Shown piece after piece: positions 9,702-12,700 of a stretch of 27,439 nucleotides of DNA. The DNA comes from Vulcanimicrobiota bacterium. GTDB taxonomy: Bacteria; Vulcanimicrobiota; Vulcanimicrobiia; Vulcanimicrobiales; Vulcanimicrobiaceae. Location: the NCBI GenBank assembly GCA_003135555.1, contig PLCF01000049.1, positions 448 to 27,886 on the forward strand, in the 5' to 3' direction. The first letter of the stretch is position 1, and each line of letters opens with the position of its first letter. The position numbers are program-made.

Positions 9702-12700
9702 AGAACGTGCTGCGCGCGGCGCGCGAGATGACCAAGCGCGAACTGATCGTCGTGTTCGGCTGCGGCGGCGACCGCGATCCCGGCAAGCGCACCGAGATGG
9801 GCGAGATCGCGGCGCGCCTGGCCGACCGCGTGATCGTGACCTCCGACAACCCGCGCAGCGAAGACCCGCTGGCGATCGCGCTGACGGTCGCCAACGGCTA
9901 CGAGCGCACCCAGATCGAGCTGGACCGCCGTAGCGCGATCCGCCGCGCGATCGACGAGGCCCAAGCCGGCGACACCGTCGTCGTCGCGGGCAAAGGCCAC
10001 GAAACGTACCAAATCGTCGGCGACGAAACGCGCGCCTTCGACGACCGCGACGAAGTCCGAATAGCCTTCGCCAAACGCGCCCAAGCCGTGAGACGATGAC
10101 GCTCGACACGCTCGAGGCGATCGACGCGATGCGCGCTCGGGTGGTCGGCGCGGAAGCGCTGCCCGCGGCGCTGCTCGTGCAGACCGACACGCGCTCGCTC
10201 GAACGCGGGGCGACGTTTCTCGCCTTGCGCGGCGAGAACTTCGACGGCCACGCCTACGTCGACGAAGCGTTCGCGCGCGGCGCCGCCTGCGCGATCGTCG
10301 ACGCGCGCGACGAAGTGTCGATCGCCGCGGCCAAAGGCCGTGCGCTGCTGGTCGTCCCCGACACCTTGCGCGCGTACCTCGAACTCGGAGCGCTGGCGCG
10401 TACGCGCGTCCGCGGCACGGTCGTCGCGGTCACCGGCAGCACCGGCAAGACCACGACCAAGCAGTTCCTCTTGGGTCTGTTGCGCGGCGTCGGCGTCCCC
10501 GCCGCCGCGACGCCCGAGAACGAGAACAACGAGGTCGGCGTCGCCAAGTTCCTCTGCGGGCTCGACGACGGTGACGAACGGATCGCGATCGTCGAGATGG
10601 GCGCGCGCAAGTACCGCGACCTCGACGTGCTCGTCGCGGCGGCGCGCCCCGACATCGGCGTGCTCACCAACGCCGGCGAAGCGCACCTCGAGATCATGGG
10701 CTCACGCGGGCGCATCGCCGAGACGAAGTGGGCGGTCCCGGCGGGCTCGCGTCAGGCGGTGCTCAACCTCGACGACGCCGCGTCGCGCGAGCGCGCCGCA
10801 ACGCTGGCGCTGGCGCCGCTGTGGTACGGCATCGACGACGAGCGCCCGCCGCAAGGCGCGCGCGCCGTCGTCATCGAGTCCGACGCGGTCCGCACGATCG
10901 CCGCGGACGGCGCCGTCGAGCGGTCGCGAATCGAGATCGGTTTCCCGGGCGACCACAACCGCCGCAACCTGGCCGCCGCGTTCGCCGCGGCGCTGCTGTG
11001 CAGCACCGGGCGCGCGAGCCTCGCCGACCTCGCCGAGGCGGTGCGCGGCGTGGCGCTGCCGCACGGCCGCTACGAGATCGTCGACCTGCCCAACGACGTG
11101 CGCCTGGTGTTCGACGCCTACAACGCGTCGCTCTCGGGGACGCTCGCCACGTTGGCGACGTTCGGGCGCGAAGAGGCGGAGCGCCGCATCGCGGTGCTGG
11201 GCAGCATGGCGGAGTTGGGCGACGACGCGCCCGCGATGCACGAGAAGATCGGCGAGATCGCCGCGACCCGCGCCGACGTCGTGCTCGCCGGCGGCGAGTT
11301 CGCGCCCGACACCGCGCGCGGCGTCGAGGCCAAGGGCGGTACGGTGGTGCGCTACGCCGCCAACGACGACGCGATCGCCTGGCTGCGCGCGAACGTCCGT
11401 CGCGGCGACACGATCCTGCTCAAAGGTTCGCGCCGCTACAAGATGGAGCAGATCGCCGAAGCGCTCGGCGCGGCGGTGTTCGCATGATCCCGGTCGCGAT
11501 TCGCGAGAGCGGGCTCCCCGAAGGCCTCGTCGCGATCCCGGTGCGCACGCGGCTCATCGCCCCCGGCGACGACCTCGCCGCGCTCGTCGGCGCCGCGATC
11601 CGCGGGATCGCGCGCCCCGGCGACGTGGTGGTCATCGCCGAGACCGGCGTCGCCATCGCACAGTCGCGTTTCATCGCGGCCGAGTCGATCCGCCCGTCGC
11701 GCTTGGCGCTGGTGCTGTCGCGTCACGCCGGTGCGCTCGCGACGGTGAGCCAGCCCGAATCGCTGCAGCTGGTGATCGATCAGGTCGGCGCGCGCAAGGT
11801 CGTGTGGGCCGTGATCGCCCACGTGTTCGGTCGCCTGCGCGGGCGGCGCGGCGTGTTCTACGAGATCCTAGGCGAAGCGATCGCCGCGATCGACGGCTAC
11901 ACCGGGACGCTGCCGCCCTACGAGCGCGCGATCGTGCTCGGACCGGCCGATCCGGATCCCGTCGCGACCGTCCTGGCGTTGGCGCTGGGCGTGCATGTCG
12001 CGATCGTCGACGCCAACGACCTGCGCCGCGCTAAGACGCTGGGCGCCTCGCCGCACGTCGATCGCGACGCCGTCGAGCGCGCGCTCGTCGGCAACCCGCA
12101 CGGCAACGGCGACGAGCAGACGCCGATCGTCGTCCTCGCCTGGCGCGGCACCGGCCCGAACCCGCTGGTGACGCCGTGAGCGACATCGGTATCCACCTCC
12201 CCTGGTGGGCTCCGCTGCTGTCGTTCTTCCCCGGCAACATCGGCAGGTTCGTCGTCCCGCTGCTGCTCTGCACCGTTGCGGCCTTCGCGCTGAGCGCGAT
12301 CCTCGGGCGTCCGCTGATTACCGCGTTGCGCCGGGCGTCGGCACGGCAGATCGCTTACGAAGACGCGCCCCAAACGCATCAAAGCAAGACCGGCACGCCG
12401 ACCATGGGCGGTCTGCTGTTCGGGCTCGCGCCGCTCGTCGCGCTCGTCGTCGCCCCCTTCCGCGAAACCGCGGCCCTGGCGGTGTTGATCTACGGCTGCA
12501 TGGCGATCGGAGCGATCGACGACGTCGCCAAGATTCGCGGACAGCAGAACCGCGGACTGCGCGCGCGGACGAAGTTCGCGCTCACGGCGATCGTCGCCGT
12601 CGTCTTTCTGCTCGTCGCCGGACCGCAATACACGTCGTTCGTCGGCATCGGCGCGGTACCGCCCTGGCTCTGGTACGGGCTCTCGATCGTCGTCGTCGTC

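Follow-up and report, generated by a model that had tools for sequence, protein, structure and literature searches.

A divergent CofE-fold protein encoded between murF and mraY in Eremiobacterota, a candidate ligase of the peptidoglycan stem peptide

Introduction

What would a protein of the CofE (F420-0:gamma-glutamyl ligase) fold be doing between murF and mraY, in the middle of a cell-wall operon? The question is raised by a gene, here called X, in a stretch of 27,439 nucleotides (the window) from a Vulcanimicrobiota bacterium (GCA_003135555.1, contig PLCF01000049.1). Homologues of X are named coenzyme F420-0:L-glutamate ligase in databases. A preliminary description had taken it for a new peptidoglycan-precursor enzyme, attaching an amino acid (by analogy a glutamate in gamma linkage) after MurF and before MraY. 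Eremiobacterota are an abundant, barely cultured soil phylum, and X is present in 200 of the 201 genomes sampled from it. A gene so widespread, located inside the core cell-wall operon, implies a step of wall synthesis that has not been recognized.

Results

The gene and its operon

According to Pfam matches, the gene order in the window is mraZ-rsmH-(141-aa ORF)-ftsI-murE-murF-X-mraY-murD-ftsW (Table 1). The frame of X is free of stops and is translated into 231 aa. It shares bases with the neighboring genes at both ends: in gcATGAtc (11484-11487) the ATG of X lies over the TGA of murF, and in ccGTGAgc (12176-12179) the GTG of mraY lies over the TGA of X. Translation and junction sequences thus confirm the ORF and its 4-nt overlaps with both genes, as previously described, and the two overlaps are present in all ten loci of the window's genus where the junctions were read.

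Table 1. Gene X and the surrounding operon in the window (upstream block 5040..10099, downstream block 13201..15766, both on the + strand)
Feature	Coordinates	Strand	Basis
mraZ	5040-5546	+	upstream part of operon; Pfam matches
rsmH	5547-6422	+	upstream part of operon; Pfam matches
141-aa ORF in FtsL position	6419-6844	+	ORF coordinates
ftsI	6849-8615	+	upstream part of operon; Pfam matches
murE	8612-10099	+	upstream part of operon; Pfam matches
murF (UDP-MurNAc-tripeptide:D-Ala-D-Ala ligase)	10096..11487	+	Mur_ligase, Mur_ligase_M, Mur_ligase_C domains; junction sequence
X, 231-aa CofE-fold protein (divergent F420-0:gamma-glutamyl ligase paralogue)	11484..12179	+	open frame, Pfam, model
mraY (phospho-MurNAc-pentapeptide translocase)	12176..13204	+	Glycos_transf_4, MraY_sig1; junction sequence; GTG start
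murD	13201-14616	+	downstream part of operon; Pfam matches
ftsW	14606-15766	+	downstream part of operon; Pfam matches

In the phylum, X was found upstream of mraY, on the same strand and within 400 nt, in 136 of the 139 genomes with both coordinates listed (134 of 137 without the unpublished genomes G036 and G188). These 136 genomes all come from three families within the window's class. The placement had been reported for three quarters of the order and almost nowhere else. The placement itself stands, with a wider extent within the phylum, and the restriction is valid for the murF-mraY position only, since the X family is widespread: it occurs in 120 of 121 genomes of Negativicutes, sampled as the class to which a Dendrosporobacter genome belongs, and 40 of 121 genomes of Cyanobacteriota have it as well.

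A full-length CofE fold with a distant sequence

In the Pfam and PDB sequence searches, the likeness to CofE is limited to the N-terminal third. Pfam F420_ligase (PF01996) covers only residues 20-100 of X (model positions 2-80 of 218, E 2.2e-12), passing the domain cut-off with 47.4 bits against 25, and CofE chains are retrieved from PDB sequences with E 0.003 over residues 23-87. The Pfam span and the PDB match reproduce the earlier figures, as do the homologues, which are now 1760, the best 120 being 81-93% identical and mostly 231 aa long. The ESM Atlas search returned only clusters of the X family itself.

The structural model extends the likeness to nearly the whole length of the protein. 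An AlphaFold2 model built from 38 sequences has pLDDT 92.0 and pTM 0.89. With this model, Foldseek finds CofE chains alone at E <= 0.001 (5.3e-10 to 4.2e-9), the next hit having E 0.84. VIA-align over 48,161 chains aligns 185 residues with 2phn_A (Z 15.7, rmsd 3.0 A; 28% of the aligned positions are identical), followed by a chain with Z 4.3. A profile-profile comparison with the CofE family (hhalign) gives 89% probability. The CofE fold previously proposed is therefore borne out on firmer ground. X has in common with CofE and FbiB's N-terminal domain (PF01996, TIGR01916; PDB 2PHN, 2G9I, 7ULD) the fold and the N-terminal block of sequence motifs, whereas the middle third is rebuilt in the X model as helices 73-134.

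On the other hand, X is no orthologue of CofE. Its scores lie far under the equivalog cut-offs (28 bits against 180.65 for TIGR01916, 31.1 against 274 for NF009809), and four Acidimicrobiia genomes contain both a true CofE (full-length F420_ligase, E ~1e-57) and an X (E ~1e-9). In CofE, the F420 is described as stacked by R234 from the C-terminal tail of the dimer partner and also contacted by G153-C155 and F92 (PMC10861534). The structural alignment pairs residue 231, the last of the X model, with residue 226 of the CofE chain, so R234 has no counterpart in X. The G153-C155 segment that follows the D-x-N motif of CofE reads D-L-R in X in the HMMER register; HMMER and hhalign set D176/N178 of X two positions apart on this motif, and the two registers conflict. 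The C-terminus of the hhalign alignment is misplaced relative to the structural one. These data support the view that X has the CofE fold over its full length and is no F420 enzyme. CofE forms an amide bond through an acyl phosphate, depending on NTP and metal (PMC8498797), and the chemistry of X is, by analogy, probably the same.

F420 and folate genes

In the window's genome (84% complete), where PF01996 has a single match, neither CofC (PF01983) nor CofD (TIGR01819) gave any; to this extent, the earlier view of a lineage without an F420 pathway is sustained. The genome does have a canonical FolC, scoring 325 bits where the cut-off is 162.65. The proteins of this fold are nevertheless not confined to F420. 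CT611 of Chlamydia trachomatis (FolC2), a CofE homologue that works on a substrate other than F420 in an organism lacking cof genes, is described as complementing an E. coli folC mutant (PMC1971073). The CofE fold can thus change its carboxylate substrate, and the "second job" for this fold, announced as a novelty in the preliminary description, is already taken. FolC2 differs from X in context: it is grouped with folate genes and stands in for an absent FolC, while X has cell-wall genes around it and a FolC elsewhere in its genome.

Gene contexts, fusions and partner domain

MurF and X are fused in frame in one genus (G033), a MurF-X fusion being seen in P0124 too, and X is fused to Amidase_3 in 5 proteins and to an AsnB-like amidotransferase in 5. 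Other fusions involve Polysacc_deac_1, a PepV-like M20 peptidase, GNAT (P0183), adenylate kinase and TPR domains. Bacillota loci also have Amidase_3 genes flanking X. Among 15 Negativicutes loci there are 12 where MurI is followed by a protein with a transmembrane helix and then by X; murI-rph synteny is general in Bacillota, and the adjacency of X and murI may therefore be partly historical.

The relatives of X carry or adjoin a partner in which a TM helix is combined with a beta-sandwich, and this membrane anchoring fits a lipid-linked substrate. For the fold of the partner, the only matches were to generic beta-sandwiches (adaptin-ear/GAE, TMEM106B luminal domain; E ~1e-4, TM 0.3-0.4), with no functional lead. 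An HMM search did not find the partner domain in the window's genome.

Taken together, the translational coupling to murF and mraY across the class, the fusions with MurF, Amidase_3 and AsnB-like proteins and the murI adjacency in Negativicutes are several independent lines supporting a tie between X and peptidoglycan precursor synthesis. This part of the preliminary description is supported, unlike the glutamate and the exact step that it proposed.

Conserved residues and phylogeny

Among 99 X domains from five lineages, the nearly invariant polar residues (numbering +1) are T22, D47, E53, Q60, R62, D137, D176, N178, D179, N204 and T213, a set such as would be expected of an active site judging from the alignment. 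The protein of the window retains all of them, while its S61 and G138, both at motif positions, deviate from the family consensus. Position 138 is Gly in the window's clade against Asp in 87 of the 99 relatives. When mapped by sequence only, the CofE segment TQK..SKAEGR corresponds to AE(S/T)..A(I/V)xQGR in X, with E53 gained and two lysines lost.

In the tree, a long stem (0.9) separates the short forms linked to the dcw genes from the remaining 87 core sequences, to which they are sister (97/70), with the root placed on a long outgroup branch. We also considered whether the dcw-linked short form is nested among its phylum's long forms, an arrangement that the tree does not support, showing it as a separate clade (100/100). 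The divergence at S61 and G138 suggests that the amine or the precursor stage used by the window's class may differ from the rest of the family. Since the clade is partner-less, carries G138 and has a long stem, what is inferred from relatives applies less strongly to the window's X.

Polyamines and the D-Glu carboxyl

The near-universal presence of X in Negativicutes concerns a group whose murein is described as carrying cadaverine or putrescine on D-Glu (PMC10628300), as reported for Selenomonas and Veillonella (PMC10628300; PMC12826042). In diderm Firmicutes, the outer membrane is said to be anchored by OmpM/Mep45 through the polyamine on murein D-Glu (PMC10628300; PMC5020339), and the cyanelle murein of glaucophytes is described with N-acetylputrescine on residue 2 (PMC9434261). 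These attaching activities, which are the reactions that we propose for the X family, are known biochemically; our literature search found no published gene or enzyme for attaching polyamine to murein.

Several neighbors of X could supply or process diamines. Basic-amino-acid decarboxylases adjoin it in two lineages. AAT-fold decarboxylases of the Lys/Orn/Arg type occur near X in 9 loci (within the fetched stretch), and an unrelated AR-fold decarboxylase in 3 further ones; between them, the two folds account for 7 of 9 Acidimicrobiia loci. The AR-fold enzyme is nearest to LysA, below its cut-off (165 vs 297.9 bits), and may act on diaminopimelate instead of in polyamine synthesis. A Hist_deacetyl-family gene is near X in 10 of 21 Negativicutes loci. 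Of the 39 cyanobacterial genomes with both X and a 408-aa GNAT protein, 35 have X directly upstream of the GNAT by hand reading. This GNAT does not depend on X, since it occurs without X in 35 of 121 genomes (GNAT in 74, X in 40). Cyanelle envelope membranes reportedly synthesize the modified precursors, as the title of a 1999 work listed in PMC3266927 has it. The window itself holds no diamine-supplying or -processing neighbor of the decarboxylase, GNAT or deacetylase type.

A functional analogue could be MurT/GatD, described as amidating the alpha-carboxyl of D-Glu on lipid II with ATP (PMC3266927), the same carboxyl that we propose for X. The architectures differ: MurT has a Mur-ligase fold and works with a glutaminase, whereas X, with its CofE fold, lacks an amidotransferase partner in the window. 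MurT_C, a marker of this amidation, was found neither in the window's genome nor in any of 61 Negativicutes genomes. Acidimicrobiia genomes do have it together with X in 4 of 4 cases, as does one genome of Pelotomaculum, so a simple either/or use of the D-Glu carboxyl fails there.

Discussion

Proposed function

We tentatively favor the view that X is an NTP-dependent amide ligase whose substrate is the stem peptide of peptidoglycan and whose most plausible reaction joins a diamine to D-Glu. By analogy with CofE, we infer a cytoplasmic catalyst in which NTP and a divalent metal would activate a carboxylate as an acyl phosphate to be joined to an amine. The carboxylate would be in the stem peptide of UDP-MurNAc-pentapeptide or of lipid I/II, and not in F420 or folate, and the likeliest reaction in the family would place a diamine of the putrescine or cadaverine type on the alpha-carboxyl of D-iso-glutamate. 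The window's class may have lost the membrane-anchored partner domain, with X coupled instead to MurF and MraY and, in one genus, fused to MurF. A step strictly after MurF and before MraY, as initially stated, is not specifically indicated, because most relatives are tethered to the membrane by their partner, which fits lipid-linked substrates equally.

Other explanations

The original version, with an amino acid (by analogy a gamma-linked glutamate) added to UDP-MurNAc-pentapeptide between the MurF and MraY steps, seems unlikely to us. In its favor are the fold, the nucleophile of CofE being L-glutamate according to PMC10861534, the position between murF and mraY and the MurF-X fusions. A clade without membrane partner would suit a soluble, nucleotide-linked substrate, and murI, adjoining X in Negativicutes, supplies D-Glu. 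However, none of the neighbors and fusion partners provides or processes an additional amino acid, and the gain of E53 with the loss of two lysines, in that same sequence mapping, does not suggest an anionic co-substrate. Moreover, the Negativicutes murein is described with polyamine on D-Glu, not with an extra glutamate (PMC10628300). Glutamate addition is thus not specifically supported; the decarboxylase, GNAT and deacetylase-family neighbors and the presence in Negativicutes point to a diamine.

X could also ligate small soluble molecules, such as a glutamyl-polyamine conjugate or a cofactor tail, its cell-wall neighbors reflecting gene order and not substrate. The substrates of the two known members of the fold are cofactors (F420, and folate via FolC2), the contexts of X vary among lineages, fusions with adenylate kinase and TPR domains exist, and the decarboxylases, GNAT and deacetylases would fit polyamine metabolism as such. 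We regard this as distinctly unlikely, given the independent recurrence of MurF, MraY, MurI, Amidase_3, AsnB-like and Polysacc_deac_1 partners and the murF and mraY overlaps retained in the ten loci of the window's genus; a membrane-anchored partner domain would also be odd for a soluble cofactor enzyme.

Very unlikely, in our judgment, is a catalytically dead X that serves as adaptor or regulator, bridging MurF and MraY for precursor handover. The gene position, the MurF fusion, the long stem of the clade and the deviating S61 and G138 are in line with such a role, but the other near-invariant polar residues are all retained and the homologues in the window's genus, among the best 120 of 1760, keep 81-93% identity and a fixed length.

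A true cofactor ligase, either CofE for F420 or a folylpolyglutamate synthase of the FolC2 type, is close to refuted: in its favor are the database name and the precedent of a CofE homologue acting on folate (PMC1971073), and we rejected the F420 role on the scores far under the equivalog cut-offs, the missing F420-contacting tail, the coexistence with true CofE in four genomes and the search without CofC or CofD matches in the window's genome, and the FolC2 role on the canonical FolC and the dcw neighbors.

Implications of a stem-peptide amine ligase

Returning to the diamine ligase, a broader reading would make the X family the missing gene for attaching polyamine to murein. Its product would be a ligase of the CofE fold that joins a diamine to the D-Glu alpha-carboxyl in an NTP-dependent reaction, working with a small beta-sandwich partner anchored in the membrane. 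We hold this as doubtful but possible, and a candidate gene would make the question of the polyamine-attaching enzyme directly testable. If true, its presence in a third of the sampled Cyanobacteriota would give the N-acetylputrescine of the cyanelle wall a cyanobacterial origin, and its wiring into the dcw operon of one Eremiobacterota class would suggest a whole soil phylum with polyamine- or similarly amine-decorated peptidoglycan.

Such a decoration would perhaps be a ligand for outer-membrane tethers of the SLH type. As a separate observation, the window's genome has one SLH match and four PS_pyruv_trans matches, which do not discriminate between kinds of outer-membrane tether.

For the CofE fold, the stem peptide would be a third class of substrate, after F420 and folate. 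An essential or near-essential ligase decorating the wall, with no human counterpart, would also be a conceivable narrow-spectrum target.

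Gene position and distribution of X

X, the CofE-fold protein encoded between murF and mraY (table), starts at an ATG that shares ATGA with the murF stop and ends at a TGA that shares GTGA with the mraY GTG start. Pfam matches on the open frames give the operon order mraZ, rsmH, a 141-aa ORF, ftsI, murE, murF, X, mraY, murD and ftsW, with the 141-aa ORF occupying the FtsL position between rsmH and ftsI. No Pfam family matches the 341-aa ORF after ftsW at E <= 0.01 or 1e-4. This ORF lies where murG would be expected, and none of murG, murC, ddl and ftsQAZ was seen in the remainder of the window. 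The Tectonin-domain protein and its 1364-aa neighbor appear to be a pair of surface or secreted proteins, without relation to X. The window's genome also contains one SLH-domain protein and four pyruvyl-transferase-family matches (C58, C22 and C94 being listed with C62), which form part of the SLH-type system for wall binding in diderm Terrabacteria.

Positions of the features in the window, in its genome and in loci of relatives
Feature	Location	Strand	Remarks
X	window, 11484-12179	+	open frame, 231 codons
341-aa ORF	window, 15763-16788	+	after ftsW, 4-nt overlap
Tectonin-domain protein (428 aa), then 1364-aa protein	window, 18537-23914	+	the latter with Big_1, fn3 and ChitinaseA_N-like repeats
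SLH-domain protein	G000:C62:34176-34307	-	in 952-aa open frame
Four-gene set downstream of X	L120:6120-10906		Negativicutes locus
Methyltransferase adjoining X	L023:4744-5937		Acidimicrobiia locus

Going by the names of close homologues, the organism belongs to Eremiobacterota/Vulcanimicrobiota. Of 41 relatives, 39 have X, and so do 200 of the 201 genomes in a phylum-wide sample (198 of 199 without the unpublished G036 and G188). Among the 139 genomes with both X and MraY coordinates listed, 136 have X on the strand of mraY and no more than 400 nt upstream of it (134 of 137 without the same two genomes), the exceptions being two genomes of another class (G093 and G118) and one with a fragmented locus (G135). 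In the window's genus, murF, X and mraY are separate genes whose stops and starts overlap or abut. A genome of family f3 (G033) has MurF and X in one reading frame with a linker of ~55 residues, in agreement with a 736-aa homologue (P0124) in which Mur-ligase domains are followed by F420_ligase (PF01996), the Pfam family of CofE. The homologues in other classes of the phylum are ~41-43% identical, have ~400-430 aa and are located elsewhere in the genome. In four genomes from one genus of the window's family (G136, G214, G179 and G209), the match to X ends near residue 222, with one in-frame TAG, and their X may be shorter at the C-terminus or stop earlier.

X is a CofE paralogue

The Pfam, PDB and homologue search figures of the preliminary description were all reproduced within rounding. 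With an alignment of 38 short-form homologues as AlphaFold2 input, the model of X reached pLDDT 92.0 and pTM 0.89, compared with pLDDT 69.8 previously. In a Foldseek search of the PDB, the only chains at E <= 0.001 were five of A. fulgidus CofE (F420-0:gamma-glutamyl ligase); E was 0.84 for the next match. An independent structural search (all vs representatives) aligned model residues 14-231 with residues 2-226 of 2phn_A (Z 15.7, rmsd 3.0 A, 185 aligned residues, 28% identity), the next best match having Z 4.3. Since both searches single out CofE, the fold claimed in the preliminary description is borne out, and on the predicted structure it is established for the entire protein, beyond the N-terminal third visible to Pfam.

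On the other hand, X is not CofE itself. Its scores against the two NCBIfam CofE equivalogs are 28 and 31 bits, with cut-offs of 180.65 and 274. Four Acidimicrobiia genomes contain an F420_ligase that is full-length (E 1e-43 to 1e-58, covering most or all model positions) together with an X homologue (E ~1e-9, model positions 2-71), and the X profile matches the true CofE of those genomes with 89% probability over 168 columns. According to a 2024 structure paper (PMC10861534), CofE contacts F420 through G153-C155, F92 and R234 of the partner subunit; X lacks an equivalent of R234, its last residue aligning with CofE residue 226. As far as the sequence alignment is reliable, two CofE lysines appear to be replaced by acidic or neutral residues. 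In the window's genome, which is 84% complete, PF01996 has only one match, and CofC and CofD were not found.

A second job for the CofE fold had been proposed as new, but it is already known, since the Chlamydia homologue FolC2 complements an E. coli folC mutant (PMC1971073). The need for a FolC2 role of X is removed by the canonical FolC (325 bits) of the window's genome.

Architectures and gene contexts in the wider family

Among 1.84 billion representatives, searched exhaustively, 677 proteins matched at E <= 0.001, and a scan of one genome per species gave at least 569 relatives among at least 600 matched stretches, the best 80 belonging to Acidimicrobiales, Cyanobacteriota, several Bacillota lineages and Vulcanimicrobiota. 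Many homologues have ~400 aa, X being the C-terminal half and a TM helix plus a ~170-aa domain the N-terminal half. The Xenobia-type, cyanobacterial and Negativicutes versions of this partner domain are homologous to one another; in Negativicutes and some Bacillota it is encoded by a separate gene, with a short X as the next gene downstream. The model of the partner (pLDDT 92.6) is made up of a TM helix, a beta-sandwich and a C-terminal helix; the fold search with it gave generic sandwich matches only, and its HMM has no match in the window's genome. Other architectures are Amidase_3-X (n=5), AsnB-like amidotransferase-X (n=5), X-GNAT, X with Polysacc_deac_1, X-M20 (PepV-like), X-adenylate kinase and TPR-X. 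Because of the fusions to MurF, AsnB-like enzymes and kinases, we infer that the X domain is cytoplasmic.

In Negativicutes, the class of a Dendrosporobacter genome, X is present in 120 of 121 genomes and MurT_C in none of 61. From 20 fetched loci, 15 were parsable, 14 of them with the TM partner directly upstream of X and 12 with the order 4HBT thioesterase, glutamate racemase, TM partner and X; a Hist_deacetyl-family gene occurs in 10 of 21 X loci. Of 121 Cyanobacteriota genomes, 40 have X, and in 27 fetched loci X is followed by a GNAT-containing protein of 408 aa. By counts read off by hand from the genome sample, the GNAT protein occurs in 39 of the 40 genomes with X and lies directly downstream of X in 35 of the 39.

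Nine X loci of Acidimicrobiia and some Bacillota contain an AAT-fold decarboxylase of Lys/Orn/Arg type (two confirmed by Pfam, the others by tblastn, with Lys/Orn/Arg decarboxylases as NCBIfam best matches). An unrelated AR-fold decarboxylase, closest to LysA and below the LysA cut-off, is found in three further Acidimicrobiia loci. One decarboxylase or the other is present in seven of nine Acidimicrobiia loci, and one of the two without is a 2.3-kb contig. In several Bacillota loci X is flanked by Amidase_3 genes, Pfam-confirmed for L068 and, twice, for L029.

Proposed function

X recurs with MurF, MraY, MurI, the MurNAc-L-Ala amidase family and AsnB-type amidotransferases, all of which serve murein precursor synthesis or stem-peptide chemistry; AsnB-type enzymes include those amidating diaminopimelate in murein. 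Because of these partners and a set of polar residues conserved in the family, the class of explanation with the best support is a putative catalytic role on the stem peptide.

Among the stem-peptide options, we tentatively favor a diamine as the group that X would add. Negativicutes murein has cadaverine or putrescine on D-Glu (PMC10628300; PMC12826042), and X is near-universal in this polyamine-murein class, which is without MurT. X has decarboxylases of two unrelated folds among its neighbors. Genes for acetyl transfer and of the deacetylase family also recur next to it, and N-acetylputrescine is found on residue 2 of cyanelle murein (PMC9434261). The apparent replacement of the two CofE lysines points in the same direction. 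In our literature search, which most subscription-journal papers fall outside, no paper names a gene for murein diamine attachment or links PF01996/COG1478 homologues to murein.

Against the proposed function, MurT_C and X coexist in four of four Acidimicrobiia genomes and in a Pelotomaculum genome, and the cyanobacterial GNAT gene, found in 74 of 121 genomes, occurs independently of X in 35 of them. In addition, the AR-fold decarboxylase may act on diaminopimelate, and the murI neighborhood may be inherited synteny. Catalysis by X, drawn from analogy, is a proposal at every step.

As a further point against the proposal, the window's own clade is atypical within the family. Its residue 138 is Gly, in contrast to Asp in 87 of 99 relatives, and its residue 61 is Ser, in contrast to Gly in 89 of 99; in the tree it is well supported, on a long stem, apart from the other X sequences. 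Given these features and the absence of the partner domain from the clade, the window's X may depart from the family norm in its amine and in the precursor stage, nucleotide-linked or lipid-linked, on which it would act.

Additional observations

A six-frame search with PF01996 had no match in a cyanobacterial genome (G225), yet its locus L089 encodes an X homologue; therefore, the lack of a PF01996 match in controls such as Synechococcus elongatus says little about X. By record title, loci L091, L030, L051, L035 and L038 belong to Asaia, Selenomonadaceae, Betaproteobacteria and Burkholderiales. The X sequences of these loci are placed within cyanobacterial, Xenobia-type or Clostridia-type clades, except L035, which has no row in the tree, and the contig of L030 is also that of a genome assigned to the window's phylum; these five bin labels are probably wrong.

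In part of the Negativicutes (L120 and at least seven other loci), a conserved set of HGD-D-like, BcrAD/BadFG ATPase, hydantoinase/oxoprolinase-like and Hist_deacetyl-family genes lies downstream of X. In seven Acidimicrobiia loci (L023, with homologues in L018, L019, L020, L022, L024 and L025), X is adjoined by a methyltransferase with a Trm112p-like N-terminal piece and a weak NCBIfam match to a daptide-type RiPP methyltransferase.
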